Positions 4,149 to 31,026 of a DNA stretch of 64,000 nt are shown here, piece after piece. The DNA is from Candidatus Jorgensenbacteria bacterium (GTDB lineage: Bacteria > Patescibacteriota > Minisyncoccia > UBA6257 > GWB1-50-10). A model generated the notes under the pieces. It was not told where the DNA came from. It ran no database searches and saw only the letters and a list, made by a program, of their open reading frames with translations. The stretch's first letter is position 1, and each line of letters starts with the position of its first letter. The stretch covers positions 2,039 through 66,038 of the forward strand of contig JAZDFV010000013.1 of assembly GCA_043807585.1 (NCBI GenBank), in the 5' to 3' direction. The position numbers and the translations under genes were made by a program.

Positions 4149-4259
4149 CCAGTCGCCTATGAAAGGACTTGAGTTTTGGTTTTGCTTTCTTAATAGTCGG
4201 CGCCCTGCTCTTTATTATTGGGCGGGTTCCACTTGCGGAGGCGGCAGTTCAGCAGTTAG
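4078..4259 (+). repeat. Repeat R1: native mrdA 3' end (last ~22 codons plus stop), spacer, and 5' ~110 nt of the downstream secreted-protein gene
   Basis: ~181/182 nt, ~95% identical to R2 at 7531-7711. Confidence 0.85.
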
Positions 4260-6475
4260 TTTTCGATACGCTTGATAGTATGGAGGCAGTTCATCCCGCG
4301 CAGGGTATAGGCACTGGTTTGTCCGGTAGTTTTGGTTCTCTCACCATAAAATTTTTGGGTACTCGAACCTATTGTTCGTATGCGCCGGTGATTTTGGGAT
4401 ATCCTTCCGAAGCTTCTTGGCTTGCCGGTTACAATAATTATGTGAGTTATCGCAAGGCCAATCTCGTGCTTCCTTGTGGCAGTAGTGTTGGTGAAGCTAC
4501 GCATACTATTTCTGCCGGTGATTTTCCGGGCGGCCCGGTGGTTTTCAATCCATCGCTTTATTACGTGGTACATCTAGAAGGAGGCACCAGCGGTACTATT
4601 TTTGGAAAGGTACGAGGGTCGGGGATTGATGTTCTTGCTGGCGGCCAGTTTTGTAGATATATGTCTTGGCAAGACCCCGCGCCTTCCGGCTGTTCGCTGA
4701 CTGTGAAGGATATGTATTTCGATCTTCAAGGGGTTTCCCCGGCGCCTCCGGCTGGCGGCATTTCGATAAGTAATTTAGGGCAATTCAAATCTGATGCGAC
4801 GAGCACGATTCCGGAGGGCAGTGCAACGACTGAGGATACGATTGTGTTTGGCGCAACGCTTCAGTCGTCATCTACAGATCAATTGCAGCTGCAGGTGGAA
4901 GTACAACCGTCGAGTATGCCTTTCACGAACCAGCCTACTTCGACGAGTACACTAGTAAACTCCGGGGAGTTTGCCACCACAGCGGCAAATCTTTCTGACG
5001 GCGAATACCATTGGCAGGCAAGAGCAGCGGATAGCCAAAACAACGTTTCAGAGTGGCAGGAGTTTGGAACGCCAAGCAATACTGATTTCGTAATTCACCA
5101 AGTGCCGTTGTATACGCAGGTGATATCTGATTTTCCATCGCAGGCAGATACCAAAAATTGGGCCCGTGAAACTTACGCCGAAGGCAGAGGAAATATTGGG
5201 CCCGAAGATCAACGTTGCGGTCTTACTATAAGAGATTGCGGTTGCGCTATCACATCCGCGGTTATGGTTTTGCGTTATTATGACATTACAACGGGTACAG
5301 ATAATCAAGACGTAAACCCGCTTACTTTCAATAACTGGCTTAATGCTAATAATGGTTACGTCGGCAATGGCAATCTTGATTGGGTGAAGGTCGTGGAGTA
5401 CTCCAGAGATTCTCTTTCCGGCATTGCCCGTTTGCATTACGACGGAAGGCGTGACATCGGAGACAATTTCGGAACAACGTTTAACGATCTTGTTAACCTG
5501 ACGGATTCTTATGTAAATTCAGCGAGACCGGTTATTGCTTGGATTCCAAGCTTTGGCCATTTCCTTGTTGCCAACGAAAAACTCGCAAATAATTACGCAG
5601 TTAGAGACCCCGCTTGGTACAACACGAGAACCCTCGATTCGGAGACAACAAGCGCATTGCAGAGAATCCGTGATTACAACAATCAGTTTGAAGGAGTGCG
5701 TCTATACAGTCATTTCAGTGGCCCCGTGGACGGCATCTCTTTGAATCTTGCCTCGCCCGCGGAACTTCTCGTAATAGACCCGCAGGGGAGGCGATTAGGT
5801 AGAGACCCAATTTCCAATATTGTCTATAGCGAAATTCTAAACAGCTCTTACGGCAGAGATGGCATCAGTAATGCCGACACCGAAGTTCCCGACTCGCCGC
5901 ACATAGTCAAAAACATCTGGGTTCCAGAACCGATAACCGGCTCTTACGAAGTTAAAGTTATAGGCACCGCGAGTGGCACGTATTCATTGAACAGCTTGAT
6001 TTACGACGCAAGTAGCACGCCCCATTTAGCGACATTTAGTGGCATTACAGCCCCAAATAGCGAAACTGATTATACTTTAAATTATTCCACCAGTACGCCT
6101 CAAGAGATTTCAGTAAAAGAAGTTTATAAATTTCTTGGTTTTCTTCCTCCGGTTAAATCCGACGGAAGCGGAGTTTGCAGACTTGGCCGGACTTTGCCGG
6201 TAAAGTTCCAGCTGAAAAACGCCCTCGGCCAATTTGTAACGAATACAACGGCAACGCTTACGGTAGCAAAAATACAGGATGGCATTGTCGGAACTGAAGA
6301 AGTAGCATTTTCAAGCGGGAATTCCAATGCAGGAAATACTTTCAGATACGATTTCCAAAACGATCAATATATCTTTAATCTGAACACAGGCACAATGACC
6401 GCGGGTACTTGGCAACTCAAGCTAAAACTGGATGACGGTAAGAGTTATACGGTTTTGATCTCATTGAGAAATTAG
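4169..6475 (+). CDS. Secreted multidomain protein with papain-fold (peptidase C39-like) Cys/His/Asp domain and beta-sandwich modules (cassette gene A1)
   Basis: Signal-peptide-like N-terminus 'LIVGALLFIIGRVPLAEA' shared with 7612..9765. Shared middle domain 'VKDMYFDLQGVSPAPP...HWQARA.DSQNNVSEWQEFGTP'. 'RDCGCAITSAVMVLRYY...GHFLVANE...VRDPAWYN' suggests a C39-like cysteine peptidase. C-terminal 'KSYTVLISLRN' is shared with orphan module 11436..11639. Starts at a TTG because a 1-nt insertion relative to copy 2 breaks the ATG frame. Confidence 0.55.
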   Translation: MSFGFAFLIVGALLFIIGRVPLAEAAVQQLVFDTLDSMEAVHPAQGIGTGLSGSFGSLTIKFLGTRTYCSYAPVILGYPSEASWLAGYNNYVSYRKANLVLPCGSSVGEATHTISAGDFPGGPVVFNPSLYYVVHLEGGTSGTIFGKVRGSGIDVLAGGQFCRYMSWQDPAPSGCSLTVKDMYFDLQGVSPAPPAGGISISNLGQFKSDATSTIPEGSATTEDTIVFGATLQSSSTDQLQLQVEVQPSSMPFTNQPTSTSTLVNSGEFATTAANLSDGEYHWQARAADSQNNVSEWQEFGTPSNTDFVIHQVPLYTQVISDFPSQADTKNWARETYAEGRGNIGPEDQRCGLTIRDCGCAITSAVMVLRYYDITTGTDNQDVNPLTFNNWLNANNGYVGNGNLDWVKVVEYSRDSLSGIARLHYDGRRDIGDNFGTTFNDLVNLTDSYVNSARPVIAWIPSFGHFLVANEKLANNYAVRDPAWYNTRTLDSETTSALQRIRDYNNQFEGVRLYSHFSGPVDGISLNLASPAELLVIDPQGRRLGRDPISNIVYSEILNSSYGRDGISNADTEVPDSPHIVKNIWVPEPITGSYEVKVIGTASGTYSLNSLIYDASSTPHLATFSGITAPNSETDYTLNYSTSTPQEISVKEVYKFLGFLPPVKSDGSGVCRLGRTLPVKFQLKNALGQFVTNTTATLTVAKIQDGIVGTEEVAFSSGNSNAGNTFRYDFQNDQYIFNLNTGTMTAGTWQLKLKLDDGKSYTVLISLRN

Positions 6476-6477
6476 AA

Positions 6478-7521
6478 ATGATGCCCCTTTTCCAAAAGAA
6501 GTTTTTTTTTCTTCTTATATTACTTATTGTTGCAAGCGGTTTATTCCTTTTCTACATCTACTATTCAAAACCGCAACCTCCCGCCGTCACTTCTCAACCT
6601 CCTGTAAATGCAACCACCAGCCAGCAAGTCGCAGAAATGAGGGTTGGTCCATGTCTTGCTGATGATGAATATGCTGAGTATAGAGCCGAGAAAAGAGAAG
6701 GCGTTCCTAGTGTTGCTGCGATATTAGTAAAAGAGAAAGATTCTAATAATGAAGTTTTTGAATTTGGTATTGAGAATGTGAAAGTGGGCCACTATCATGC
6801 TTACGAAATTCATAAGTGTAATGTTTATATTGTGAGGGAATTTAATTATGATTATCGAAAAGGGAAAGCCTTACCAAATTACAAAATAGAAATATGGCAA
6901 TATCAGTATGACGGTAAGGGAAAGGAATTAGTAGAAATCGATGATTTTCGGGTTGACTCTGTAGAACGTTATATTGCTTTCCTTAAGGGCTATCTCGGCT
7001 CTTCTGATTACGCGATTGTGATTAAAGACCTCAAAACCCTAAATGACGTTTTTACCTTGCCAATGTCAGAGATTGAAAAACGAAATCTGGAAATCGTGGG
7101 CGATATGCAGTTTGAGAATTGGTCTAGCGATGGACGTTATCTTTGGGCTAATACTGCTTATGGCGCCAACACGCTTGGTTTCATTCGCATTGATACCAAA
7201 GATCGGAGCGTAAAACTTTTGCCTGCGCCAAAGGATGTTTTGGGCGGCGACGCCCTCAATCTTGAGAAGGGGTTAATCACCGTTCATCCGGGGAATGTTT
7301 GGTTCGGCGTCTCGGAGCTTGATGAACAGGAAAAAGCGAAGCGCCGCGCTCAAGGAATCGGCACCGAGCTTTATATATACAATCTCTTTACCGGAAAGCA
7401 GCTCTTCGTAGCAAGCACCACCGAACCTCTTTATTATTTCAAACCCAAGTGGCCCTCTGACACCGAACTGGAGTATTATTTTCCTTCGGGAGAGCGGGAG
7501 GTTTATAGGGTCGTAGAGTGA
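6478..7521 (+). CDS. Membrane-anchored hypothetical protein (cassette family B, copy 1)
   Basis: N-terminal TM anchor. Homologous to 11650..12735 through 'GPCLADDE', 'YAIVIKDL', 'GANTLGFIRID', 'LGGDALNLEKGLITVHPGNVWFG', 'QEKAKRRAQ'. Confidence 0.5.
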   Translation: MMPLFQKKFFFLLILLIVASGLFLFYIYYSKPQPPAVTSQPPVNATTSQQVAEMRVGPCLADDEYAEYRAEKREGVPSVAAILVKEKDSNNEVFEFGIENVKVGHYHAYEIHKCNVYIVREFNYDYRKGKALPNYKIEIWQYQYDGKGKELVEIDDFRVDSVERYIAFLKGYLGSSDYAIVIKDLKTLNDVFTLPMSEIEKRNLEIVGDMQFENWSSDGRYLWANTAYGANTLGFIRIDTKDRSVKLLPAPKDVLGGDALNLEKGLITVHPGNVWFGVSELDEQEKAKRRAQGIGTELYIYNLFTGKQLFVASTTEPLYYFKPKWPSDTELEYYFPSGEREVYRVVE

Positions 7522-7530
7522 ACCAGAGCC

Positions 7531-7711
7531 TGAACACGGTGCCGGTGGCGCGGGACGTGTTTCTGTGGTACTATGAGAATCGGTTAAAGAATAAAATGTG
7601 ACCAGTCGCCTATGAAAGGACTTGAGTTTTGGTTTTGCTTTCTTATAGTCGGCGCCCTGCTCTTTATTATTGGGCGGGTTCCACTTGCGGAGGCGGCAGT
7701 TCAGCAGTTAG
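7531..7711 (+). repeat. Repeat R2: displaced copy of the mrdA 3' end (with its own stop codon) plus start of cassette gene A2
   Basis: Encodes '...LNTVPVARDVFLWYYENRLKNKM*' versus native '...LNTVPVARDVLLWYYENRLKNKI*'. Confidence 0.85.
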
Positions 7712-9765
7712 ACGACTCCGTAACTTCTGTAACCTCATATTCTAATCCCGTACAGACCATAGGTGGCATTACTGGTACGCTCTCGTCATTGACTATTCAC
7801 TTCGCCTCACAAGGCAGTTTAATTATGGTGAAAATGATTGTGAGAGAATATGACACAATGCCCGAGGGTGCGCCTAACGGGTATTCACAGCAGTGGTATC
7901 CTATTTCCGATAATTATATGCGGGATGGGACCTCGGCAACGTTCACTGCTTCGGAATACTCAACGCCGGTAGTTTTCAATCCTGATAAATACTATGCTTT
8001 TATGTTTTATCAAATGGATAGATACCTTCAAGGTTCCGGTTCAGATGTTCTCCAAGGCAAGTTTTATTCAACTGGTACGACGGGTAATACTACGGAAGAT
8101 CCGAATGTGAAGGATATGTATTTCGATCTTCAAGGGGTTTCCCCGGCGCCTCCGGTCGGCGGCATTTCGATAAGTAACTTAGGGCAATTCAAATCTGACG
8201 CGACGAGCACGATTCCGGAAGGCGGCGCGACGACCGAAGGTATGATTGTGTTCGGCGCAACGCTTCAATCATCATCTACAGATCCACTGCAGTTGCAGGT
8301 AGAAGTACAACCGTCGAGTACACCTTTCACGAACCAGCCCACGGCGACAAGCACATTTATTGACCCGGGGGGTTTTGCTACTACGACAGTTACGAATCTG
8401 CCTAACGGCCAGTATCACTGGCAGGCAAGGGCGGTAGACAGCCAAAACAACGTTTCGGAGTGGCAGGAGTTTGGAACGCCAGGAAATATAGATTTTGAAG
8501 TAAGCATGCCTTTATCTACCAAGGCAGTGAATCTTGCAAAACTCGTTATTAACGGGCCATATTTAGGAGACGGCGACACTTTCGGTGGCAAGGGGTGGGA
8601 TCCTGTGCGGGCTGAATATGTAACTTCAAGCCTGATTCTAAGTGGATATCAGTATTGGAATAACAAATTGAGGATCATTGCTTTTGGGGCGGGTCTTGAC
8701 TGTTCTGGATTAGTGCAATGGGCATTTAACCGTTCCTTTGATCCCAAAAAGAGTCTGCTGAAGAATGTGGTTCGTTACGATGGGGCGGATGGGCAGTATA
8801 AAAATAATTCTGAAAACATAGCCGAGGCGGATCTGCGGCCAGCCGATTTATTGTTTCTCGATAAAGATGGTAATGGTGGAAAGGACCATGTTGCGATGTA
8901 TGTGGGAGATAATGGAACATTCGATGTTGTAGAAGCACATTCGCCAGCACGAGGTATCATTACCTCTAACAAAGCTGAGTTTAAGACAAGGGCTGGATTC
9001 ATTGGAAACCAAGGTTTTCGACGAGTAATTGCCAGTCCATCAATAGGAGGTCAAGTTAAAGTTAGCTCTCCAATTGATTTAATTGTGACCGACCCTGATG
9101 GATTTACTATTACACCAACGACGGTGATTCAAACCGACGAGGAGTATCTCCGAGAAGTACCGGGTGAACTTTACTACACGGAAAATGTGCTGGGGATTGA
9201 TGGTCGTCCGGAGGACATAGTTTACTGGCCCGCGCAGAAGATTGGTAATTATAGCATTAAAGTTCTCCCCGAAGCTGACGCTATGCCGACAGAAACTTAC
9301 TCAATGGAATTTACTGTTGGCGAGCAGACGATTGTTTTGGCAGACGATGTTCATTTAGATCAGATACCGTTGGAAGGTTATGGAGTTAACATCGCGAGTA
9401 GTGGTGCAATCAGCACTTTTGTGCCAGTAGCTATTGATATCAAGCCGAACAGTTTTCCTAATAGTATCAATTTAGGTTCCAAAGGCACTACCCCAGTGGC
9501 CATTCTCGGCTCTGCGACACTTGATGTTAAACAAATTGACCCGAACACAATTAAACTCGCAAATGCCCCAATCAAATTAAAGAACAACGGAAAGTTGATG
9601 ACAAGTTATGAGGACGTAAACGGAGATGGCTTTACCGACATGGTCGTTCATATTATTACCGCTGTGCTTCAATTAGCTCCCTCGGATGTGAAAGCGGAGC
9701 TGAGCGGTTTCCTCTTGGATAGAAGAGAAATAAAAGGGTCGGATTCGGTCAAAATTGTGCCATAA
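7612..9765 (+). CDS. Secreted multidomain protein with NlpC/P60 cysteine peptidase domain and beta-sandwich modules (cassette gene A2)
   Basis: Same N-terminus and middle domain as A1. 'DCSGLVQWAF...DHVAMYVG' matches NlpC/P60 Cys/His. PPC-like module 'IDLIVTDPDGFTITPTT...YSIKV'. C-terminal 'IKPNSFPNSINLGSKGTTPVAILGS' module. Confidence 0.6.
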   Translation: MKGLEFWFCFLIVGALLFIIGRVPLAEAAVQQLDDSVTSVTSYSNPVQTIGGITGTLSSLTIHFASQGSLIMVKMIVREYDTMPEGAPNGYSQQWYPISDNYMRDGTSATFTASEYSTPVVFNPDKYYAFMFYQMDRYLQGSGSDVLQGKFYSTGTTGNTTEDPNVKDMYFDLQGVSPAPPVGGISISNLGQFKSDATSTIPEGGATTEGMIVFGATLQSSSTDPLQLQVEVQPSSTPFTNQPTATSTFIDPGGFATTTVTNLPNGQYHWQARAVDSQNNVSEWQEFGTPGNIDFEVSMPLSTKAVNLAKLVINGPYLGDGDTFGGKGWDPVRAEYVTSSLILSGYQYWNNKLRIIAFGAGLDCSGLVQWAFNRSFDPKKSLLKNVVRYDGADGQYKNNSENIAEADLRPADLLFLDKDGNGGKDHVAMYVGDNGTFDVVEAHSPARGIITSNKAEFKTRAGFIGNQGFRRVIASPSIGGQVKVSSPIDLIVTDPDGFTITPTTVIQTDEEYLREVPGELYYTENVLGIDGRPEDIVYWPAQKIGNYSIKVLPEADAMPTETYSMEFTVGEQTIVLADDVHLDQIPLEGYGVNIASSGAISTFVPVAIDIKPNSFPNSINLGSKGTTPVAILGSATLDVKQIDPNTIKLANAPIKLKNNGKLMTSYEDVNGDGFTDMVVHIITAVLQLAPSDVKAELSGFLLDRREIKGSDSVKIVP

Positions 9766-9773
9766 AATCGTTT

Positions 9774-10361
9774 ATGCCCGTCCTTAGTTCAATCCATAAA
9801 AAACTACTCTTCCTGTTTGTTGTTATTGCCCTTGGTCTTATTTCAGTGTGGGTATTTATTAAATACCAACCCGCTCAGAAAGAACTACCGCCGGCACTGA
9901 TTTTAACTTCAACTCCCCAATCGTCGGCGGTTTCAGCCCCAATCTCTACCACCTCAACAAGCATCACGCAAGAAACCAAAACCTATCGCAATGAAAAGTT
10001 TGGTTTTGAATTTCAGTATCCGGGAAACTGGATTGTAAAAGAGAATACTTTTGGAAGTTATTACAGTAAATTTAATCTTGTGGTAAATCCCGAATTAGTG
10101 CGGAGTTCTAATTTTACATTTTCAATCAATATTGTATTGCCAGAGTTTCCTGAACGTAGTTTTCGCAACATAGAAAAAACAACTCCTGAAGTGATTGTTG
10201 ATGGAGTTGTGGGTACCAAATATCAGTATGAGTTTGAAGGTCAGCAGGAAACAGCGATTATATTACCACTCGGAGAATATAGGATGATTTTAGGAAGAGA
10301 TAGTGAACAATATTTGAATGAATTTAATCAAATTATTGCTTCATTCAAGTTTTTGAGTTGA
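9774..10361 (+). CDS. Membrane-anchored hypothetical protein (module shared with C-terminus of 10429..11439)
   Basis: N-terminal TM anchor. 'KTYRNEKFGFEFQYPGNW...YQYEFEGQQETAIILPLGEYRMILG...FNQIIASFKFL' is paralogous to the C-terminal half of 10429..11439. Confidence 0.45.
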   Translation: MPVLSSIHKKLLFLFVVIALGLISVWVFIKYQPAQKELPPALILTSTPQSSAVSAPISTTSTSITQETKTYRNEKFGFEFQYPGNWIVKENTFGSYYSKFNLVVNPELVRSSNFTFSINIVLPEFPERSFRNIEKTTPEVIVDGVVGTKYQYEFEGQQETAIILPLGEYRMILGRDSEQYLNEFNQIIASFKFLS

Positions 10362-10428
10362 TGATGAGTTACGAGAACGTTAACGAAGTTTGATGGAACT
10401 ATAATCAAGGGATCTGATTCTGTTCGGA

Positions 10429-11439
10429 TTGTCCCTTAAAGTTGAATCTATAAACATAGTGAACAAAAAGTTATTAATTACATTAATCGGCATTATCATG
10501 CTTGGTGCTAGCGTTGCGATTGCGGGGTGGTGGATGTTTAGTGGGCGACCTGATCGGAATCAATCAATGCCTTCTGTCCCGCCCACTGCTTCCTCTACTC
10601 CTTCTGCTGGGAGGAATAATATTCTGGGAGTGGGGATGATAACATCTAGTCAAGGCCCTATTGACCTCATCGTGACCGATCCCGATGGATACACTATCAC
10701 GCCAACAACGACCATTCCTTCTGATTTTGAATATCTTCGCCAAATCCCCGGAGTTCTCTATTATTCGGAAATGGAAAAAGGGGCAGATGGCAACCCAATT
10801 GACAGGGTTTATTCCTACACTGCTAAAATCGGTGATTATCTTATAAAAGTGTTACTGGCTTCTAACGCTACTCCGACTTCAACTTATAACCTCAATTTTT
10901 CAGTTGGGGATCAGTCCATAACGCTTGCTCAAAATACACCCGTAAGTCAAATACCGCAGCAAGGATACGGCGTGCGTGTGGCGCCGAATGGTTCGATTTC
11001 GCCTCTACCTTTGGTTCTAACTATTCCGTCTGTTCAAACAGGAAAAGCAGAGGGCATGAAAACATATATAAATACTGAGTTTGGTTTTGAGTTCCAATAC
11101 CCAGCAAATTGGGAGATACGAGAAAACGTTTTTGGGAGTCCGGCAAGTAAATTTAACTTGAATATTGTCCCGAATACCGAACGTTATCTTCCCGATCCGG
11201 TACTGATTAATGTTGTGACTTCTAGTTTTGGTGACCGCGCTTTTCAAGATTTGGAGAATATTACCTCCAAGATAACGGTTGGCGGTATTTCTGGCAAACG
11301 TTACGATTATGAGTTTGAGGGCATGCAAAGAACCTCAATCCTTTTACCGTTCGGCGAGCTTAGGATTATTTTGGGATCTGAGCAACGGTATGAAGATGTT
11401 TTTAATCAAGTTATTTCCTCATTCAAGTTCTTGAAATGA
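10429..11439 (+). CDS. Membrane-anchored hypothetical protein with PPC-like beta-sandwich module
   Basis: N-terminal TM anchor. 'IDLIVTDPDGYTITPTT...YLIKV' is paralogous to A2 residues ~480-590. Confidence 0.45.
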   Translation: MSLKVESINIVNKKLLITLIGIIMLGASVAIAGWWMFSGRPDRNQSMPSVPPTASSTPSAGRNNILGVGMITSSQGPIDLIVTDPDGYTITPTTTIPSDFEYLRQIPGVLYYSEMEKGADGNPIDRVYSYTAKIGDYLIKVLLASNATPTSTYNLNFSVGDQSITLAQNTPVSQIPQQGYGVRVAPNGSISPLPLVLTIPSVQTGKAEGMKTYINTEFGFEFQYPANWEIRENVFGSPASKFNLNIVPNTERYLPDPVLINVVTSSFGDRAFQDLENITSKITVGGISGKRYDYEFEGMQRTSILLPFGELRIILGSEQRYEDVFNQVISSFKFLK

Positions 11440-11639
11440 ATATCAAACCCGGCAGTTTTCCAAATAGCATCAATCTTAATTCAAAAGGCACCACTCCTGT
11501 CGCGATTTTCGGTTCCGCGACGTTCGATGTTAGACAAATTGACTCTACTACGATTAAACTTGCTAACGCCAGCGTAAAATTAAAAGGCAACGGCCAGCCA
11601 ATGAAGAGTTATACGGTTTTGATTTCTTTAAGGAACTAG
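11436..11639 (+). pseudogene. Orphan C-terminal module fragment (67 aa) of the cassette gene A family
   Basis: 'IKPGSFPNSINLNSKGTTPVAIFGSATFDVRQID...KSYTVLISLRN' joins the C-terminal module of A2 to the C-terminal tail of A1. Lacks an N-terminal gene body. Confidence 0.4.
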
Positions 11640-11649
11640 ACATGGCACC

Positions 11650-12735
11650 ATGACCTCATTATTTCGAAGGAGGGTTTTTTTGTTGTTTGTACTGCTCATT
11701 ATCGTGAGTGCGATATTTTGGTTTTACTTACGCTATTTCCGATTTCACACCGCTGACACTTCCCAGGTTCCAGGCAATGCCACCACGACGGAAGAAATTA
11801 ATAAAGTAAAACACGGCCCATGCCTTGCGGATGACGAAATGGTTGAATACGACCGTATAAGCCAACACCTACTTATTACACAACCGAAAGACATGTCGCC
11901 AGTTATTTATGTACGCAATAAAACTACAGGTGAGACGACGGTTAGCTTTCGACTTGATGACGTTATGGTTTTTGGACATCCGATGGAGATACACAATTGT
12001 GGTGTTTACGTTGTAAGAGCTTTCAATTATGACCCGCAAAAAGCTAAGCAAGAAATAGGTTTTCGTGATGAGTTGTGGAAATACGATTATCGGGGAGAGA
12101 AAAAAATGTTGATATTGCTTTCCGAGAAGCCGAAAGAATTCATTGACTATTACGGCCTTGAATTTCGTGTTGCCCCCACAGAAACCTACGTTTCTTTTAT
12201 ACGCGGGTACTTGGGTAAGGCCGACTATGCCATCGTCATTAAAGATTTAAACGCGCTCAGAGATATTTTGACTCTGACAATTGCAGAAATCGAAAAGCGC
12301 AATCCGGATTTAGTGCAGGATATCGCATTCGACGACTGGACCAACGACGGTCGCTACTTCTGGGTCCACACGCATTATGGAGCAAACACTTTGGGTTTCA
12401 TTCGCATAGATATGGAAACAAAAACCTTTGATTTATTTCCTGCGCCGAAAGATGTTCTGGGCGGCGATGCTCTCAATCTTGAAAAGGGATTAATCACGGT
12501 TCATCCAGGCAATGTCTGGTTCGGCATTGCCCAAGTGGAGGAACAGGAAAAAGCCAAGCGGAGAGCACAGAGCATCGGCACCGAACTGTACGTTGAAAAC
12601 CTTTTTACCCACGAGCGCCAGTTTGTGGCGAGCACCGCAGAACCGCTCCACTACTTCAAGCCGAAGTGGATTTCCGACACTGAACTGGAGTATTCCCTGC
12701 CGTCAGGGGAAACGAAGATGTATACAATTCCTTGA
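11650..12735 (+). CDS. Membrane-anchored hypothetical protein (cassette family B, copy 2)
   Basis: Paralog of 6478..7521. Confidence 0.5.
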   Translation: MTSLFRRRVFLLFVLLIIVSAIFWFYLRYFRFHTADTSQVPGNATTTEEINKVKHGPCLADDEMVEYDRISQHLLITQPKDMSPVIYVRNKTTGETTVSFRLDDVMVFGHPMEIHNCGVYVVRAFNYDPQKAKQEIGFRDELWKYDYRGEKKMLILLSEKPKEFIDYYGLEFRVAPTETYVSFIRGYLGKADYAIVIKDLNALRDILTLTIAEIEKRNPDLVQDIAFDDWTNDGRYFWVHTHYGANTLGFIRIDMETKTFDLFPAPKDVLGGDALNLEKGLITVHPGNVWFGIAQVEEQEKAKRRAQSIGTELYVENLFTHERQFVASTAEPLHYFKPKWISDTELEYSLPSGETKMYTIP

Positions 12736-12775
12736 TGAATGGGAGATAGGCAAACCATTGCGCCCAAAACTGGGA

Positions 12776-12847
12776 AACACCGTTCCGGTGGCGAACGACG
12801 TGCTCCTGTGGTACTATGAGCATCGTATAAAAACTGGTAACGGGTAA
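12776..12847 (+). repeat. Repeat R3: diverged displaced mrdA 3'-end remnant with own stop
   Basis: Encodes 'NTVPVANDVLLWYYEHRIKTGNG*', same orientation as mrdA. Confidence 0.7.
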
Positions 12848-13396: not shown

Positions 13397-14842
13397 ATGC
13401 TCCGCGACCTTATAGCCGAACGCAGGCGAAAGCTTGCCACCTACCGCGAGGCGGCTGACCCATACCCGGCTTCGGTGGCGCGCACGGTGACGCTGGGGGA
13501 CCTCACTGCTCGTTTCGGGACATTCGCGCGCGGGAAACGACGGGTGTCGGTGGTAGGCCGAGTGGTTTCATGGCGGGATCAGGGCAAGATCCTTTTCGCC
13601 GGTCTCACCGATGCTACCGGGAAACTCCAGGTGGTGATGACTGCGGAAGCGACCGCTCCCTTCACCGTCTTGAAGCACAGCGTCGATATCGGGGATTTTT
13701 TGGAGGTGCGGGGGCGGGCGTTCACCACCAAGCGCGGGGAGAAAAGCATCCTCGCCGAGCGGGCGCGCCTTCTCTCGAAAAGTGTGCGCCCCGTCCCGAG
13801 CGAATGGTACGGACTCTCGGACATTGAGACCCGGCTCCGGAAACGTTATTTGGACCTCCTCGTAAACCCCGAGGTGCGCGAGCTTTTCGTGAAGAAAGCG
13901 GAGTTCTGGCGGACGATGCGGGGAGTGCTCGTGAAAGACGGATTCCTCGAGGTGGAAACGGGGGCGCTGGAGCCGGTCCCGGGGGGCGCGGATGCGGAAC
14001 CGTTCGTGACCCACATGAACGCCCTTGACCGGGATTTCTATCTGCGCATCTCGCTCGAGCTCCCATTGAAGCGGCTCCTCGTGGGTGGGTATGAGAAAGT
14101 GTTCGAGATCGGGCGCGTGTTCCGCAACGAAGGGATGGATCGCGACCACCTCCAGGACTACACCCAGATGGAGTGCTACGCGGCGTACTGGGACCACCGG
14201 GATATGATGAAATTCGTGGAGCGGCTTTTCCGCGCGGTCGTGAAGCGCACCGTCGGGTCTCTCTCCACGAAGCACGGGGGTAAGGCGGTGGATTGGGGAA
14301 AGGAATGGCCGGTGGTGGATTACTTCGCGGTTTTCAGGAAGGCGACGGGGATTGATCTGGAGAACGCCACGCGCGACGCCCTCCGCCTTGAGGCGGAAAA
14401 GCGGAAACTGGCGCCGGAGCCGCGTGCAGGCCGCGGGCGTCTCATTGACATGATTTTCAAGAAAGCGGTTCGTCCCACGCTTGTGCAGCCCTCGTTCCTC
14501 ACGGGGCACCCGGTGGATATCTCGCCGCTCGCGAAGTCCGATCCGGAGCATCCGAAGAAGACACTTCGTTTCCAGGTAATGGCGGCAGGAATCGAGCTGG
14601 GGAACGGCTGGGCGGAGCTCAATGACCCCGAGGAGCAGCGGCGCCGGTTTGGCGAGCAGATGAAGCTCCGCGCCGCTGGCGACAAAGAGGCTCAGCGGTT
14701 GGACGAGGATTTCGTGGAAGCTTTGGAGTATGGTATGCCGCCCGCCGCCGGATTCGGGCTTTCAGAGCGCTTCTTTGCGGTCCTGATGGATAAACCCATC
14801 CGCGAAACGGTCATGTTCCCGCTTATGAAAGAGGAAAAATAG
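13397..14842 (+). CDS. lysS: Lysyl-tRNA synthetase, class II
   Basis: OB anticodon-binding N-terminus; class II motifs ('FRNEG', 'GIDR'-like) in the catalytic core. Confidence 0.9.
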   Translation: MLRDLIAERRRKLATYREAADPYPASVARTVTLGDLTARFGTFARGKRRVSVVGRVVSWRDQGKILFAGLTDATGKLQVVMTAEATAPFTVLKHSVDIGDFLEVRGRAFTTKRGEKSILAERARLLSKSVRPVPSEWYGLSDIETRLRKRYLDLLVNPEVRELFVKKAEFWRTMRGVLVKDGFLEVETGALEPVPGGADAEPFVTHMNALDRDFYLRISLELPLKRLLVGGYEKVFEIGRVFRNEGMDRDHLQDYTQMECYAAYWDHRDMMKFVERLFRAVVKRTVGSLSTKHGGKAVDWGKEWPVVDYFAVFRKATGIDLENATRDALRLEAEKRKLAPEPRAGRGRLIDMIFKKAVRPTLVQPSFLTGHPVDISPLAKSDPEHPKKTLRFQVMAAGIELGNGWAELNDPEEQRRRFGEQMKLRAAGDKEAQRLDEDFVEALEYGMPPAAGFGLSERFFAVLMDKPIRETVMFPLMKEEK

Positions 14843-14845
14843 AAC

Positions 14846-14890
14846 GATGACCATGACGATGACCATGACCATGACTATAACCATGACGAT
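14846..14890 (+). repeat. (ATGACN)n hexanucleotide tandem array in the lysS-serS spacer
   Basis: gatgaccatgacgatgaccatgaccatgactataaccatgacgat. Confidence 0.8.
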
Positions 14891-16153
14891 ATGCTAGATA
14901 TTAACCTCATCCGGGAACAGCCGGACAAAGTGAAGGAGGGCGTTCAAAAGAAGAACGTCGACCCTAAGATTGTGGACAAATTTTTGCGTTTGGACGAACA
15001 GTGGCGGGCGAAGACCGCCATCCTGGACCAGCTGAAAACGGAGCAAAACCTCCTCTCGAAGGAGCTTTCACATGGCCAGAGCGAGGAGGCGCTCTCCAAA
15101 GCGCAAGTGTTGAAAAATAGGATCACCGGCGTTGCCGCCGAACGCAGCGAGGTGGAGGGAAAGCGGGATGAAGTGCATCACCAACTACCCAATCTTCCCC
15201 TTGCCGACGTGCAGGTGGGAAAGGATGAATCCGGGAACAAGGTGCTCCGCGAGGTTGGGGAAAAACCGACGTTTGATTTTACGCCGAATGATTATCTTTC
15301 CCTCGGAGAGAAATTGGGCATCATCAATGTGAAGAAGGCCAGCGAGGTTTCAGGACCGCGGTTCGGCTACCTCATGGGAGACGCGGTGCTTTTGGAATTC
15401 GCGCTCGTTAAGCTCGCATTTGATACGCTCATTCCGGAAGGGTTCACGCCTGTGATCCCGCCGGTGCTCGTGAAGGAACGCACCATGCGGGCCATGGGTT
15501 ACCTGGACCGCCACGAGGACCGCGACGAGGCGTACTTCTTTGAGAAAGACGGGCTCTACCTCGTGGGGACCTCGGAGCAGTCGCTCGGGCCGCTCCACAT
15601 CGGTGACGTGCTGGAGGAGGCCGAATTGCCGAAGCGCTACGTCGGGTTTTCCAGTTGCTTCCGGCGCGAGGCGGGCTCCTACGGGAAGGACACAAAAGGC
15701 ATTCTCCGCGTCCATCAATTCGACAAGGTGGAAATGTTCAGTTTCTGCAGTCCCGAGCAGTCGCGCGCGGAACACGCCTTCCTCCTCTCAATGGAGGAGA
15801 AGCTCATGCAGGCGCTTGAGATCCCGTACCGCGTGGTGGAGATATGCACGGGGGATTTGGGGAACGTTGCTGCGGCAAAGTTTGACATTGAAGCGTGGTT
15901 CGCGGGCGAGGGCGTGTACCGCGAGACACACTCAACATCCAATTGCACCGATTTCCAGGCGCGCCGCCTCAACGTGAAGTATCGCCCGAAGGAGAAAGGC
16001 GCAAAGCCCCGGTACCTGCATACACTGAACGGCACGGCATTTTCTCAGCGGCCGCTCCTCGCCATCATTGAGAACAACCAGCTCGCTACGGGCACCATTA
16101 AGGTCCCGAAGGCGCTCCAGGGGTACGTGGGGAAGAGGGAGATAGGGGTATAA
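14891..16153 (+). CDS. serS: Seryl-tRNA synthetase
   Basis: N-terminal coiled-coil arm and class II catalytic core with motifs 2/3. Confidence 0.9.
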   Translation: MLDINLIREQPDKVKEGVQKKNVDPKIVDKFLRLDEQWRAKTAILDQLKTEQNLLSKELSHGQSEEALSKAQVLKNRITGVAAERSEVEGKRDEVHHQLPNLPLADVQVGKDESGNKVLREVGEKPTFDFTPNDYLSLGEKLGIINVKKASEVSGPRFGYLMGDAVLLEFALVKLAFDTLIPEGFTPVIPPVLVKERTMRAMGYLDRHEDRDEAYFFEKDGLYLVGTSEQSLGPLHIGDVLEEAELPKRYVGFSSCFRREAGSYGKDTKGILRVHQFDKVEMFSFCSPEQSRAEHAFLLSMEEKLMQALEIPYRVVEICTGDLGNVAAAKFDIEAWFAGEGVYRETHSTSNCTDFQARRLNVKYRPKEKGAKPRYLHTLNGTAFSQRPLLAIIENNQLATGTIKVPKALQGYVGKREIGV

Positions 16154-16363: not shown

Positions 16364-16526
16364 GTGAAGCTCCACTGGCTGACCTGCGCTTCGCCGAAGG
16401 CTTCGGCAAGGCGAGCGCCCGTGGCTTCTTTCCATTCGGGGTTCCGTGGAGCGCCTGCCCGCCGAAGCACGGGCGCAGGCGGGGAACCCCGCACCAGTCC
16501 GCCTTAGGCGGACGGTGCGGGGGTAA
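16364..16526 (+). other. Conserved ~165-nt element 'A' (copy 1); structured RNA or small antisense ORF
   Basis: Begins 'gtgaagctccac', ends 'ggtgcgggggtaa'. Highly similar to 31027-31198. Contains a 3' hairpin with compensatory changes between copies. Confidence 0.5.
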
Positions 16527-16528
16527 TT

Positions 16529-16562
16529 GTCCTTTATACCCACGATCGTGGGTATAAAGGAC
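16529..16562. promoter_or_regulatory. Perfect 34-nt palindrome (gtcctttatacccaCGATCGtgggtataaaggac) upstream of PaaX-like gene 1; putative operator
   Basis: Immediately followed by 'tatact' -10-like box and the gene start 20 nt downstream. Near-identical imperfect copy lies downstream at 17234-17267. Confidence 0.55.
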
Positions 16563-16581
16563 ATGTGCTATACTGGGATGG

Positions 16582-17223
16582 ATGGAATGTGAGAAAAACA
16601 CGAAGGTGGGAGAGCGGCCACGAAGAGCGAAAGGCGATATTCTCCTGCGGGTGTTGGAGAGGGTAGCGGAGGGTGCCGGAGATGCTGCCGCCATGTTTGG
16701 AGCTTTTTTGTCGGCTGGGTATGGCGCCTCGTATGGAAAACTGGAGCGAGAGCTCGCGCGGGAGCATGCAGGGAGGGAAGCAGCCGCGCAGGCGGTGCGG
16801 CTTGAAAGAGAAGCCAGGCGCAAATATCGGAAATTGTTCTACCTCCTCAAAAAGGACGGGCTTGTGGAGGAGAAGAAAAAAGCTCACAACAATATTTTTC
16901 TTCTCACCAGGCGGGGGGTGGCAAAACTCGCGGAGCTCCGCAAGCGGAAACTGCAGCTATTGCCTCGTCGGGTGTATGAGCCGGAGCGGGCGGACGTGTT
17001 CACTATTGTGACGTTTGATGTTCCGGAGAGAGATAGAAAAAAGCGAGAATGGCTTCGGGAAACATTGAGATCTCTGGGATTTGATTTTGTGCAAAGGAGC
17101 GTTTGGATAGGGAAGGTAAAGCTTCCGAAAGAGTTTTTGGAGGACATACAGCACCTAAACCTTATTGATTCTGTTGAGATTTTTCAGATTACAAAGACTG
17201 GCAGCTTGAAACACCTTATGTAA
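16582..17223 (+). CDS. PaaX-family protein: winged-HTH plus Cas2/VapD-like fold domain (paralog 1)
   Basis: 'YTIVTFDVPERDRKKREWLRETLRSLGFDFVQRSVWIGKV' fits the Cas2/VapD-like beta-alpha pattern seen in the PaaX C-terminal domain. N-terminal wHTH. Paralogs at 30449..30937 and 53202..53786. Confidence 0.6.
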   Translation: MECEKNTKVGERPRRAKGDILLRVLERVAEGAGDAAAMFGAFLSAGYGASYGKLERELAREHAGREAAAQAVRLEREARRKYRKLFYLLKKDGLVEEKKKAHNNIFLLTRRGVAKLAELRKRKLQLLPRRVYEPERADVFTIVTFDVPERDRKKREWLRETLRSLGFDFVQRSVWIGKVKLPKEFLEDIQHLNLIDSVEIFQITKTGSLKHLM

Positions 17224-17233
17224 TGTGTGGAAT

Positions 17234-17267
17234 GTCTTTTATACAGACGATCGTCTACATAAAGGAC
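17234..17267. repeat. Imperfect 34-nt palindrome downstream of PaaX-like gene 1 (cognate of 16529-16562)
   Basis: gtcttttatacagaCGATCGtctacataaaggac. Confidence 0.55.
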
Positions 17268-17354
17268 AAACCATGTGCTGGGAGATGTGAATGGTAAAAC
17301 GATGAGAGAACGAAAGCGGTTGAGTGTTGCGTTTGACGCACGCGCACTCTCTAG

Positions 17355-17417
17355 TCAGGGTTCCCTTGCCTCGTCGCAGATGAGCTTCGGTTCCTCGTCG
17401 CGCCAAGAGAGGCGCCC
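17355..17417 (-). repeat. Copy of the dnaE 3' end; 49 nt (17369-17417) identical to 55571-55619; encodes variant C-terminus '...EEPKLICDEAREP*'
   Basis: Direct orientation relative to dnaE (coding on minus strand) with its own in-frame stop. Confidence 0.75.
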
Positions 17418-17533
17418 CGAGACATTCCACTCGTATCTTGGTCTCCTGAAGCATGGGAACGCGCGCAGGTTGAAACGGCGCGCGCGGTATTTGTGTTATA
17501 ATTTTTCTGTACCAATGGATCCTCATTTTTAAA

Positions 17534-21833: not shown

Positions 21834-21999
21834 TTCTATACTTGAAAGGCTTGGTTGGAGCAATGGGAGCCGTAGGCGAACCAGTGCTCCATTCCAAACT
21901 TTCACCCCGTTAGATAAGAATATGAAAACCGTGGCAGTAAACAGACATAACGTATATCGATTACTATCGGTCGGCGATTCCCTGTCCTCGCTATCTAAC

Positions 22000-22067
22000 G
22001 GGGTGCTCGATTTTGTAGATAAATTTTCTTCTTCTACAGACTCGAAAATTTGTACAAAATCGGCATG
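22000..22067 (+). promoter_or_regulatory. Conserved ~68-nt leader / translation-start element (copy upstream of hrcA)
   Basis: ggggtgctcgattttgtagataaattttcttcttctacagactcgaaaatttgtacaaaatcggcATG. Same element precedes mraZ and ftsL. Preceded by a long IR (21903-21916 / 21992-22005). Confidence 0.6.
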
Positions 22068-27680: not shown

Positions 27681-27717
27681 TAAAGAACTGGGCCTCACGT
27701 GAGGCCCAGTTCTTTTT
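27681..27717. terminator. Bidirectional Rho-independent terminator between dnaJ (+) and the NUDIX gene (-)
   Basis: aaagaactgggcctca CGTG tgaggcccagttcttt followed by a T-run. Confidence 0.7.
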
Positions 27718-29364: not shown

Positions 29365-30258
29365 TTAGGAAAGCTCCTTACGTACCTTGTCGTGGAGGGC
29401 CGCAAGTCCCGCGAGGAGCGTGAACTGCTGGGCGGGAGAATCCACGTTGTGGCAACTAAACTCATATCCACTTCCTTTATCGGGCGAGCATGAATATGAG
29501 GGATGAAGCCCACACGCGTCGCCGGGGCAGCTTACGTTCAACCATCCGCCCCTATAGGCGATATGCGCCGAAAAGCTGTGGTCATCGAGCGGTCCTCGGC
29601 CGAGCATATGGTAATAGGCGGTCCTCATTGCCTTTTCCATTTCTGGGATGACATAAACGTGCCGCTCGGGTAAATCCGTCACCTTCGAAGCGAGCCACGA
29701 AGTAAGCGGAACGCTATACATCCCGCCGAGGCTTCCTCCGTGCATGTCCCTCATCGTTAGCGTTTCCACGGAGAGGAGTTGTGGGAGCTTCGAGGAGGTT
29801 TCGGCGTCATTCAGGTAATTGAGCAGGGAGAAAAGGACAGTAAAGCTCGCCGAGACCGCGAACGCTTCGTGCCAGAGGTAGTTGTATTGCTTTCCGGTGC
29901 CGCCGCAGCGTAGGCATTCGCCGCCGAAAATTCTATCCTTCTTCTTTCCTTTGCAGGAGGGGCATACTTTCCCGACTCTTTGCTTGACGATCGGTGCGCT
30001 TGCCATCAGTTCGATGAATTCGCCGCGCGGGCCGCGATAGGTGAGCGCCCCTTCGAATCCGAACCCGTTCACGGGTTTCTCCGAGAAATTCTTGAAGTTG
30101 AATTCCGGATCGAAGTTTCGGACCATCGGCGAGTCAGGTTTGATTTGCTCGAACAATTTCAGCATATCTCGATGAATTCGGACAACGATTGCGGTTTTCT
30201 CCGGTAGCCAGGACAGTTCATACCAACAAGGCAGAACATCGTAGATGATGATTTTCAT
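29365..30258 (-). CDS. Hypothetical protein with CxxC...CxxC zinc-ribbon
   Basis: 297 aa; 'CPSCKGKKKDRIFGGECLRCGG'. No recognised family. Confidence 0.4.
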   Translation of the reverse strand: MKIIIYDVLPCWYELSWLPEKTAIVVRIHRDMLKLFEQIKPDSPMVRNFDPEFNFKNFSEKPVNGFGFEGALTYRGPRGEFIELMASAPIVKQRVGKVCPSCKGKKKDRIFGGECLRCGGTGKQYNYLWHEAFAVSASFTVLFSLLNYLNDAETSSKLPQLLSVETLTMRDMHGGSLGGMYSVPLTSWLASKVTDLPERHVYVIPEMEKAMRTAYYHMLGRGPLDDHSFSAHIAYRGGWLNVSCPGDACGLHPSYSCSPDKGSGYEFSCHNVDSPAQQFTLLAGLAALHDKVRKELS

Positions 30259-30374
30259 GAGCAGATCCCTCCCAAGTGTCTTTAGTTTTGTGATTCGTTG
30301 CTGGTTTTGAGACTACAGATTTTCAGGGGTTGCGTCAAGTATGGCGCGCGCGTTTTCGCCGCCATCCGGATGAT

Positions 30375-30408
30375 GTTAACAAATTACACGGCCGTGTAAT
30401 TTGTTAAC
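30375..30408. repeat. Perfect 34-nt palindrome gttaacaaattacacGGCCgtgtaatttgttaac flanking PaaX-like gene 2
   Basis: Cognate copy at 30985-31015. Third solo copy at 39593-39625. Confidence 0.6.
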
Positions 30409-30448
30409 ATAAGGTGTCTTGTGGAATTTCAGCACCGTCGGGCCCGGT

Positions 30449-30937
30449 TTAAATGATCTCAGCTTCTCGCGCCTTGAAGAATTTGATGTATCGCAGAAGG
30501 TCGAGCGCCTCCAGCGCCTCTATAAAATCTTTCGGGAGGGGAGCGGGGCCAAGCCACACACTCTGTTGGAGTTTTACGAAACCGAGATTTAAAAGTTCAA
30601 AGCGGAGCCATTCACGTTTTCTCCGGAGCCGCTCCGGTATGTCGAATGCGATGATGAGCGATTTTTCTTTTGCGGGTTCTTTGATCTTCCGTTTGGTGTG
30701 TGTGGGCAATTTGAGCGCAAGTTTTTCGAACCCCTTTTTCGTTGTGGCCCAAACACCATTATCGTTTTTGACGAATCCTGCATGTTTGAGCCGGGAGAGC
30801 GTAACGCGAATGGAAGCATCGTTGTAGTGTGCCGCAGGCCTTCGGTCCTCATGCATTCCCATAAGCCGCCGCCGCATGAGGCGGTACCCCCCGTGATAAT
30901 CCAAGAGTACCGTAATGATGTCATCCGCCAAGCTCAT
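30449..30937 (-). CDS. PaaX-family protein: winged-HTH plus Cas2/VapD-like fold domain (paralog 2)
   Basis: 'IIAFDIPERLRRKREWLRFELLNLGFVKLQQSVWLG'. Confidence 0.6.
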   Translation of the reverse strand: MSLADDIITVLLDYHGGYRLMRRRLMGMHEDRRPAAHYNDASIRVTLSRLKHAGFVKNDNGVWATTKKGFEKLALKLPTHTKRKIKEPAKEKSLIIAFDIPERLRRKREWLRFELLNLGFVKLQQSVWLGPAPLPKDFIEALEALDLLRYIKFFKAREAEII

Positions 30938-30984
30938 ATTTTTTGTCCCTTCGTTTTTTACTTCTTTACTTTCGTATAATATAT

Positions 30985-31015
30985 TAACATTTTACACGGC
31001 CGTGTGAAATGTTAA
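30985..31015. promoter_or_regulatory. Palindrome ttaacattttacacGGCCgtgtgaaatgttaa overlapping the putative promoter of PaaX-like gene 2; putative operator
   Basis: Lies ~50 nt upstream of the minus-strand start. -10-like 'tatatt/tattatac' overlaps on the coding strand. Confidence 0.55.
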
Positions 31016-31026
31016 TAGTGCACAAA

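Follow-up and report, generated by a model that had tools for sequence, protein, structure and literature searches.

Three paralogous winged-helix/Cas2-fold genes of Candidatus Jorgensenbacteria are each bracketed by locus-specific palindromes and may encode stable autoregulated DNA-binding proteins

Candidatus Jorgensenbacteria belongs to the Paceibacteria of the Candidate Phyla Radiation. We analyzed a housekeeping stretch of 64,000 nucleotides (nt) from one of its genomes (assembly GCA_043807585.1, contig JAZDFV010000013.1, positions 2,039 to 66,038 of the forward strand), which is called the window below and numbered from its first letter. Three paralogous genes of the window encode short proteins in which a winged helix is joined to a domain of the Cas2 fold, and each gene has a 34-38-nt palindrome of its own, present in two copies, one on either side. 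The same layout was found in related genomes, so that, judged from the sequences, this is a protein family with a precise predicted DNA target and a kept gene layout. At slightly better than even, we favor the view that these are stable, autoregulated DNA-binding proteins of PaaX/PadR ancestry, which carry the Cas2 fold as a module and recognize a composite palindrome at their own promoter, after their own stop codon and at a few further targets.

Three genes and their paired palindromes

A first reading made from the sequence alone (the sequence-only reading) had placed three homologous genes in the window, and open reading frames (ORFs) were present at all three positions. The locus 1 gene (16582-17223, + strand) encodes 213 amino acids (aa) with a winged helix and a Cas2-fold (PaaX_M) domain, the locus 2 gene (30449-30937, - strand) encodes 162 aa with a short winged helix and a PaaX_M domain, and the locus 3 gene (53202-53786, + strand) encodes 194 aa with a winged helix and a Cas2-fold domain. 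Their homology was borne out, since the locus 1 protein was 53% identical to that of locus 3 and 34% identical to that of locus 2.

The upstream site of locus 1 (16528-16563; TGTCCTTTATACCCACGA / TCGTGGGTATAAAGGACA) is perfect over 36 nt and has the core CGATCG at 16543-16548. Its downstream partner (17233-17268; TGTCTTTTATACAGACGATCGTCTACATAAAGGACA; core 17248-17253) starts 10 nt past the stop codon and is imperfect, with 11/14 arm pairs. At locus 2 the downstream site (30373-30410) is perfect over 38 nt, with the core CGGCCG at 30389-30394, and the upstream site (30982-31017; core 30997-31002) has one mismatch. Both sites of locus 3 are weakly palindromic: 7/14 arm positions pair in the upstream one (53118-53153; core CGGCCG at 53134-53139; outer arms TTCCCCTA/TAGGAGAA) and 10/14 in the downstream one (53807-53842; core 53823-53828). 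The centers of the three families are CGATCG, CGGCCG and CGGCCG, respectively. A solo copy of the locus 2 site, which the sequence-only reading had put at 39593, was present at 39594-39625; it is perfect, and 34 nt here are 100% identical to 30374-30407 in the downstream copy.

Ten palindromes with a score of at least 12 were found in the window and none in 20 composition-preserving shuffles, and four of the six top-scoring palindromes of the window belong to the three loci. The shuffles, together with the comparison across genomes given below, ruled out a chance origin, and the unit of gene plus cognate palindromes proved to be real and non-random. The identity of 85-100% that had been claimed between the two copies of a locus was too high, as we found about 81% (29/36) at locus 1, 77-85% at locus 2 and 86% at locus 3. 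The three families had also been called unrelated; their outer half-sites differ, and the center A-CGRYCG-T is common to them.

Two of the loci are adjoined by a GC-rich element of ~170 nt that occurs twice in the window, at 16364-16525 and 31027-31200 (both + strand), with 92-94% identity in two blocks. The first copy stops exactly at the upstream palindrome of locus 1 and the second begins 10 nt beyond the upstream palindrome of locus 2. Each copy can be folded into three hairpins, whose tips carry indels. The 3' hairpin shows apparent compensatory changes (GTCCGCC..GGCGGAC vs GTCCCGC..GCGGGAC), of which the alignment fold recorded none. The element may be a small RNA or an intergenic repeat. 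Rfam held no family for the palindromes or for this repeat.

Conservation and anatomy of the sites in related genomes

Homologues were collected by a pattern search with one genome per species, which gave 37 loci from Wolfe-, Lipton-, Nomura-, Harrison- and Giovannonibacteria and other Paceibacteria, or 40 loci together with those of the window. Palindromes were counted as sites when centered on CGRYCG with at least 8/14 arm pairs. Within 250 nt of the gene (40 kb of DNA) 68 such palindromes were found, compared to 2 in the remaining 177 kb of the homologous loci, indicating that they are not generic terminators. Upstream and downstream copies were both present in 35 of the 40 loci. Counted over distinct homologous loci from other Paceibacteria, 39 of 44 carried paired sites, confirming that related genomes have the flanking palindromes as well as the gene. 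Two copies of the same locus matched at 32.5/42 positions, copies from different loci at 19.7/42. Locus 2 founds a separate subfamily of ~165-aa proteins (135 matches), in which the same layout was seen in 4/4 loci with readable DNA and again at a fifth protein, sampled from ten metagenome contigs. The whole family comprised 775 clusters at 50% identity in a profile search (E <= 1e-30).

The only clear exceptions were three homologues located within an obg...gatB operon, which have no CGRYCG-centered site on either side and no promoter of their own; both sites therefore go with an independent transcription unit. One of the three, L034, does have a coreless palindrome just past its stop codon.

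The center of the site is near-invariant. Exactly four forms occurred (CGATCG, CGGCCG, CGACCG and CGGTCG), in most cases preceded by A and followed by T. In the arms, positions 9-13 (counted outward from the center) were 94-100% symmetric and differed between loci, but the two copies of a locus agreed at each of them in 31-33 of 35 loci; positions 2-8 were more variable, with a symmetry of 51-89%. The resulting site consists of two outer half-sites ~22 bp apart and a common center, which is fixed as arm length ranges from 14 to 22 nt. This anatomy would suit a protein with two-fold symmetry. That the center has four variants, including the asymmetric CGACCG, fits a predicted mode of binding in which each subunit would read one 'CGR' half. 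In the locus 2 subfamily the outer half-site GTTAACA was kept between proteins that are ~50% identical, and the inner arm varied. G-T and A-C mismatches numbered 29 vs 29 in upstream sites and 16 vs 43 in downstream sites; wobble pairing in the sense RNA was thus not favored, which speaks against an RNA hairpin, and hairpins of the sense RNA were rejected on this ground.

Position of the two copies relative to promoter and stop codon

In 23 of 35 upstream copies (8 with a perfect TATAAT) a -10-like box (at least 5/6) is located at the right arm or immediately beyond it; among downstream copies the number was 14 of 37 (1 perfect). The box is often 5-12 nt before the ATG, which suggests leaderless mRNAs. 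At locus 1 the extended -10-like box TGcTATACT (16566-16574, + strand; TATACT itself at 16569-16574, preceded by TGc) is situated 2 nt past the palindrome, abutting its right arm, and 7 nt before the ATG, again suggesting a leaderless or near-leaderless mRNA. The TATAAT of locus 3 (53157-53162) follows the arm by 3 nt. At locus 2 a promoter-like TTCACA-16-TAATAT on the minus strand falls inside the upstream palindrome, in which the single mismatch gives TAAAAT, in the inner arm, on the gene strand and TGAAAT on the other. The inner arms of this copy depart from the perfect downstream copy exactly where the -10 is created, and the opposite arm has changed in step. The claim that the upstream copy overlaps a -10 box thus holds within the palindrome at locus 2, whereas at loci 1 and 3 the boxes abut the right arm. 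One homologous locus (L044) has a full TTGACA-16-TAAAAT promoter as its upstream site, with CGATCG in the spacer. An autoregulatory operator, one of the functions first suggested for these sites, appears to be the best reading of the upstream copy.

In most loci the downstream copy begins 10-90 nt past the stop codon, and in most it equals or surpasses the upstream copy in palindromy; in the locus 2 subfamily it is perfect. A -10 box is mostly lacking. As the gene that follows is convergent in about half of the cases, the downstream copy does not in general serve as an operator for that gene. Intrinsic terminators were also rejected: no T-run follows the stems, no terminator-like site was found at any of the six palindromes of the window, and the sites are tied to this gene family. 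Ordinary intrinsic terminators, which look unlike the cassette sites, occur in the window at 27682-27715 and 39372-39412 and, in bidirectional form, at L070 10990. That at 27682-27715 is a perfect 34-nt palindrome (AAAGAACTGGGCCTCAC / GTGAGGCCCAGTTCTTT) between the convergent dnaJ and NUDIX genes, a bidirectional terminator unrelated to the cassettes.

The downstream copy of locus 2 lies 38 nt past the minus-strand stop and 115 nt 5' of a co-directional gene (29365-30258, - strand). This gene, which adjoins the locus 2 cassette, encodes a protein of 297 aa that has CxxC...CxxC motifs and matched nothing in Pfam. A 45%-identical relative was found at L038 19-909, on the opposite side of the orthologous cassette, and the protein may be a functional partner or a paralogue.

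Fold and family of the proteins

The proposed architecture of a winged helix followed by a Cas2/PaaX_M domain was supported. The 'Cas2-like' domain PF20803 (PaaX_M) was matched by loci 1, 2 and 3 with E = 4.9e-14, 1.4e-17 and 4e-13, all above the gathering score. Loci 1 and 3 exceeded the curated cut-off of Pfam CRISPR_Cas2, and they also exceeded that of the equivalog TIGR01573 cas2 (24.5 bits) with 28.1 and 35.2 bits, with locus 2 reaching 18.9. The AlphaFold model of the locus 3 protein (mean pLDDT 84.9, the per-residue confidence of the model) has an N-terminal winged helix and a C-terminal beta-alpha-beta-beta-alpha-beta domain, so the C-terminal domain does model as a Cas2-like fold. Its best PDB matches in Foldseek were Cas2 (2ivy, 6jhz), E. 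coli PaaX (8a39) and PadR-type winged helices, with a further Cas2 match to 8ia4; the probabilities of these matches were high and their E-values only ~0.02. The Cas2 signature FD[IV]PE..RRKR.WLR....GF..VQ.SVW is kept, and D127, R136, R140, S154 and G158 were invariant in 62 sequences, D127 aligning with the catalytic aspartate of Cas2.

The locus 1 protein was 100% identical to an entry named 'CRISPR-associated endonuclease Cas2' at NCBI, from a metagenome-assembled genome (MAG) of Candidatus Jorgensenbacteria, and the locus 2 protein was 100% identical to an NCBI protein likewise from a Candidatus Jorgensenbacteria MAG. Many other family members bear the same Cas2 name. No cas1, other cas gene or array of clustered regularly interspaced short palindromic repeats (CRISPR) was found in the window, where no regularly spaced repeats were seen and no dedicated tandem-repeat or CRISPR scan was run; with no CRISPR context, the name given to the locus 1 protein is misleading. 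When screened with the PADLOC models of defence systems, Cas2 was the only match, and membership in such a system was rejected.

Solo sites beside pyrF

Copies of the site away from a family gene are rare, with one in the 64-kb window and, in the homologous loci, two in the 177 kb beyond 250 nt of the gene, one of the two being weak. The solo site of the window lies 125 nt 5' of pyrF (39752-40477) and adjoins pyrF-pyrE. A metagenome scan with the Nomurabacteria-type site returned 13 loci. Eight of these had an adjacent gene of the family, six of the eight with both sites, three were solo sites located 6 nt past the pyrF stop in a pyrE-pyrF operon (L066 1483-1516, L070 14673-14706 and L074 232-253), and two were on contigs that end too near the site to judge. 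The 34-nt pyrF solo site was 100% identical between two genomes in which PyrF is 77-81% identical and the adjoining intergenic DNA is unalignable. Such identity amid diverged DNA indicates that the site is under purifying selection. The window solo site is of a different paralogue type from the Nomurabacteria-type one, and the occurrence of two independent solo sites next to one pathway is a hint of a regulon. A gene of the locus 2 type adjoins pyrD in yet another genome.

Stability of the units and scars around them

For two proteins of the family, every contig read from many metagenome samples (24 + 24) held the identical protein between the same neighbors. Synteny also extended across genera, with gyrB-cassette-thrS in 10 genomes and glyA/xerC/D-like-cassette in 6; locus 3 is located in the gyrB...thrS neighborhood, as are CGGCCG-type homologues of Nomurabacteria. 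The xerC/D-like gene, which adjoins 6 of the 40 loci, looks like a case of conserved synteny. Paralogues inside one genome were 31-53% identical. No flanking duplications were detected in 32 of the 34 loci tested. A partner recombinase was sought in the unit and, with Pfam, in 39 ORFs of the window, and no transposase, integrase or recombinase was found; the mobile-type matches were a reverse transcriptase (RVT_1) at 25-1059 and the gyrB intein. No relatives were found in viral contigs, which led us to reject carriage by phages. A VapD, toxin-antitoxin or addiction module was rejected as well, the units of the window and the homologous loci being monocistronic with spacers of 100-150 nt on both sides. 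The sequence-only reading had regarded the units as selfish cassettes or addiction-type modules. We do not retain this view given the fixed neighborhoods, the deep synteny, the diverged paralogues, the lack of a recombinase or partner and the selected solo site.

The att-like scars that had been noted near the units are real and are confined to loci linked to dnaE and tRNA-Glu in this lineage. Just 3' of locus 1 lies a non-functional fragment of the dnaE 3' end (17355-17495, - strand), with 46 open codons and no start, which is 98% identical over 55 nt to 55571-55625 in the live dnaE. Locus 3 has one dnaE 3'-end-like fragment on its 5' side (53033-53074, - strand; ...KLIRDEVTEP*), which forms a direct repeat with 53875-53916, and one on its 3' side (53875-53925, - strand; ...EPKLICDEVKEL*). 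Both are decayed copies of the last 13-16 codons, 74-76% identical to each other and to the live end over 42 nt, and the direct repeats (29 nt at 90% identity) scored 20 compared to a shuffle maximum of 11. The live dnaE end is at 55557 (...EPKLICDEV...*), with a TPR gene (53926-55473) between it and the last fragment. In the homologous locus L001, which has arms of the locus 1 type, the unit lies between a 10-codon copy of the dnaE end and the real one. The dnaE 3' end looks like a hot spot of duplication or insertion. A tandem duplication had been predicted to have left ORF 52135-52842 as a decayed extra paralogue, which was rejected at an hhalign probability of 0.1%.

The 3' end of tRNA-Glu (39298-39370) is duplicated ~170 nt downstream, at 39541-39560 (CTCCTTGGGGCT, exact), and resembles the att-type scar left by an integrated element. 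The solo palindrome of the window lies 33 nt beyond this duplicate. Taken together, the scars point to past rearrangement around the units in this lineage rather than to present-day mobility, and a segmental duplication that created paralogues, or old insertions, could be their cause.

Proposed model

In the model that we favor, the protein would act as a dimer, with a PadR/PaaX-type winged helix fused to a Cas2-fold domain. It would recognize the long composite palindrome through the outer half-sites at arm positions ~9-14, specific to each paralogue, and through A-CGRYCG-T, common to the family. Binding to the upstream copy, which overlaps the gene's own promoter, would lead to repression, giving negative autoregulation. 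The downstream copy might serve as an auxiliary operator that promotes occupancy of the promoter site, with the 0.7-kb gene looped out, or alternatively as a roadblock to transcription entering or leaving the unit. Extra copies elsewhere, such as those beside pyrF, would give each protein a small regulon. As the outer half-sites of the three window paralogues differ, these would not cross-talk.

Several observations weigh against this model. Where the inner arms differ between the two copies of a locus, the change was compensated in the other arm 25 times compared to ~4.8 expected, which hints at selection or mutational bias for base-pairing, as in a cruciform or hairpin, rather than at base-specific contacts with a protein. 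Selection for a symmetric DNA shape, a cruciform, or replication-templated correction of quasi-palindromes could each explain such changes. In a crude Mantel test of half-site against protein sequence, r was 0.18 for the N-terminal and 0.25 for the C-terminal domain, a weak signal consistent with shared ancestry that neither supports nor refutes a specific read-out. The co-variation in specificity claimed earlier is thus found between the two sites of a locus and not, beyond phylogenetic signal, between protein and site. An invariant Cas2-type aspartate is not obviously needed by a pure dimerization module. At loci 1 and 3, which have -10-like boxes alone, no -35/-10 pair was detected in a scan for two-hexamer promoters. 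Finally, we know of no precedent for a family-wide operator after the stop codon, and the role given to the downstream copy is a guess.

Alternative explanations

The protein might instead be architectural or an insulator, acting mainly at the perfect downstream-type and solo sites, where it might, for instance, stop transcription between convergent or tandem housekeeping genes or shape local DNA loops, with the promoter copy only setting its own level. The palindromy of the downstream copies is in keeping with this, as are the position of about half of them between convergent genes, the conserved solo site 6 nt past the pyrF stop, which faces a convergent gene, the absence of intrinsic terminators at the cassette ends and the neighbors, mostly highly expressed housekeeping genes (tRNA synthetases, dnaE, gyrB, ligase, chaperones). 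However, about one solo copy per 60-100 kb is too few for general termination or insulation, the window has ordinary intrinsic terminators, and its own solo site is 5' of pyrF and not at a gene end, so that we regard this explanation as unlikely. A little less probable still is a site-specific nuclease or DNA-structure enzyme, in which the Cas2 fold would read and perhaps cut or nick the CGRYCG center, possibly in a cruciform or single-stranded hairpin, with the winged helices only delivering it to its own sites. Such a Cas2-derived enzyme or clamp on the bracketing palindromes would be a free-standing relative of the CRISPR adaptation scaffold; the idea is improbable by our estimate. If it is true, the enzyme might on rare occasions excise, invert or duplicate its own unit, and could account for the duplicated dnaE and tRNA ends. 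The conserved aspartate and signature favor it, as do the scores of loci 1 and 3 above the cas2 equivalog cut-off and the titles of PDB 4es1-4es3, according to which some Cas2 proteins cleave double-stranded DNA. Moreover, no part of the site is as conserved as the center, which is built like a type II restriction site and stays fixed as arm length varies, and the compensated inner-arm changes suggest that base-pairing matters. Against this, cleavage sites flanking the gene itself would mean repeated self-excision, yet the loci are stable, and within the arms it is positions 9-13, far from the center, rather than those flanking it, that are best conserved and most symmetric. Asymmetric centers (CGACCG/CGGTCG) and the conserved asymmetric inner arms of Nomurabacteria fit reading by a protein better than a hairpin, the upstream sites coincide with promoters, and quasi-palindrome correction during replication could yield the compensated changes without selection.

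A selfish or mobile cassette, with the palindromes as element ends or recombination sites, a protein that mediates or targets the excision, insertion or inversion of its own gene, and solo sites that are empty or vacated, seems to us about a one-in-ten prospect. The dnaE 3'-end repeats around locus 3, the dnaE ends on both sides of L001, the fragment after locus 1 and the solo site near the duplicated tRNA-Glu end all speak for movement. So do the inversion of the cassette relative to the xerC/D-like gene in L003 and L037 as compared to L002, L005, L012 and L021, the different contexts of the locus 2 subfamily in distant genomes, and the presence of several paralogues per genome with distinct sites. 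This evidence is opposed by the constant contexts, the gyrB-cassette-thrS synteny, the rarity of flanking repeats, the absence of near-identical copies within a genome, and the lack of a transposase or integrase and of viral relatives. In addition, the solo site is conserved by selection rather than decaying, and each site keeps its own symmetry instead of being a hybrid of target and element arms. We give least weight, and very little, to elements acting as RNA, namely a 5' stem-loop and 3' terminator or stabilizer hairpins bound or cut by the Cas2-like domain, whose fold resembles an RNA-recognition motif. In favor of this are the long, often perfect stems, the location of the downstream copy, which the mRNA would include at its 3' end, and the RNase activity of some Cas2 and VapD proteins; but the mismatch counts given above do not favor G-T, no T-run follows the stems, and solo sites lie outside the transcription units of the family gene. 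Furthermore, since the upstream copy carries promoter elements, most of it is probably untranscribed. We prefer the stable autoregulated regulator to a mobile or addiction cassette on account of the fixed neighborhoods and the lack of a recombinase and of viral relatives.

Comparison with known systems

The closest known protein is PaaX (PDB 8a39, 3l09), a repressor of E. coli and Pseudomonas that responds to phenylacetyl-CoA and has the same N-terminal winged helix and Cas2-like middle domain; 8a39 matched the locus 3 model in Foldseek over 186 columns. PaaX represses its own promoter by blocking RNA polymerase, and its Cas2-fold domain serves as a dimerization motif. The E. coli PaaX operator has widely spaced inverted 6-bp half-sites, TGATTC-N27-GAATCA (PMC9493321). 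The 34-46-bp sites described here are similar in geometry, with a shorter spacer (~22 bp) that holds the CGRYCG center. In contrast to PaaX, the window proteins have only 162-213 aa (the 8a39 chain has 305 residues) and lack the ligand-binding domain PaaX_C, for which there was no Pfam match: they end right after the Cas2-like domain, and the locus 3 model shows no further domain. They also differ in having a second site after the gene and in keeping the Cas2-type aspartate. Scores against the PaaX equivalog TIGR02277 were 20.1-22.1 bits compared to a cut-off of 264.55, and no paa genes were among the scanned ORFs of the window. The proteins share two domains with PaaX but are not PaaX.

Cas2 has the same fold and sequence signature, here fused to a winged helix, and Cas2 dimers lie along duplex DNA in the Cas1-Cas2 complex (PDB 5ds4 and 5xvo, both among the Foldseek matches). 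PadR proteins (5zi8, 4esb, 4esf) could be superposed on the N-terminal domain. Repressors of the PadR family and other autoregulated ones with a winged helix have a palindromic operator over their own promoter, like the upstream copy here; the present units differ from them in the much longer, composite site, the presumed Cas2-fold dimerization module, the stand-alone gene and the second site past the stop codon. RAYT genes are likewise single genes bracketed by copies of a palindrome (REP) that is also found elsewhere in the genome. Unlike RAYT, the present proteins have no HUH/Y1 transposase domain, there are very few dispersed copies instead of hundreds, and the sites coincide with a promoter and are perfect dyads with a fixed center. 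In Tus/TerB, RTP/IR and ParB/parS a gene stands beside the binding site of its own product, is autoregulated through it, and has more sites elsewhere. Here no GC-skew switch was seen at the three loci and no partition ATPase nearby, and in contrast to TerB and IR, palindromic sites cannot serve as polar fork traps.

Other features of the window

The genes identified in the window were serS, hrcA-grpE-dnaK-dnaJ, rplJ-rplL, mraZ-mraW-ftsI-murE and pyrF, in addition to gyrB (with an intein), gatB, miaA, thrS, dnaE and two tRNA genes. The cassettes have serS, rplJL, tRNA genes, thrS and dnaE as neighbors. The reverse-transcriptase gene (25-1059, + strand; RVT_1, E 6e-21) lies directly 5' of mreC. 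In gyrB (42129-45365, + strand; 1078 aa) an Intein_splicing domain is inserted between the GyrB and Toprim domains. A region of low GC content (41-49%) at 4078-12847 holds duplicated gene pairs with repeats 74-97% identical (4169-6475 with 7612-9765, and 6478-7521 with 11650-12735), and one of these genes encodes a C39-like peptidase domain.

A conserved 70-nt element, internally palindromic (AAATTTTC...GAAAATTT), occurs at 21998-22067, 34198-34267, 35925-35994 and 59895-59964. It ends at the ATG of four genes, hrcA, mraZ, ORF 35992 and ORF 59962, and is probably a shared promoter or 5'-leader element. Short intergenic tandem arrays of ATGACC/ATGACA/ATGACT hexamers with a 12-nt period were found at 14825-14902, 34686-34786 and 60371-60472, just 5' of serS, mraW and ORF 60523, respectively.

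Implications

Full-text literature searches returned no description of this family or layout, and to our knowledge almost nothing is known of gene regulation in the Candidate Phyla Radiation, within which this family of ~775 clusters offers a testable DNA target. The layout may be a new regulatory design, in which one operator sits at the promoter and a better one follows the stop codon, with CGRYCG as the center throughout the family and outer half-sites specific to each paralogue. The paralogues form a natural set of mutually distinct protein/site pairs, and the conserved solo sites that recur beside pyrF/pyrE suggest a first candidate regulon. Since family members are named as Cas2 without any CRISPR context, CRISPR surveys of these bacteria will over-count. 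A Cas2-derived enzyme, should the proteins prove to be one, could inform the divergence of Cas2 and PaaX, and if the Cas2-type aspartate is catalytic the family bears on the origin of Cas2.

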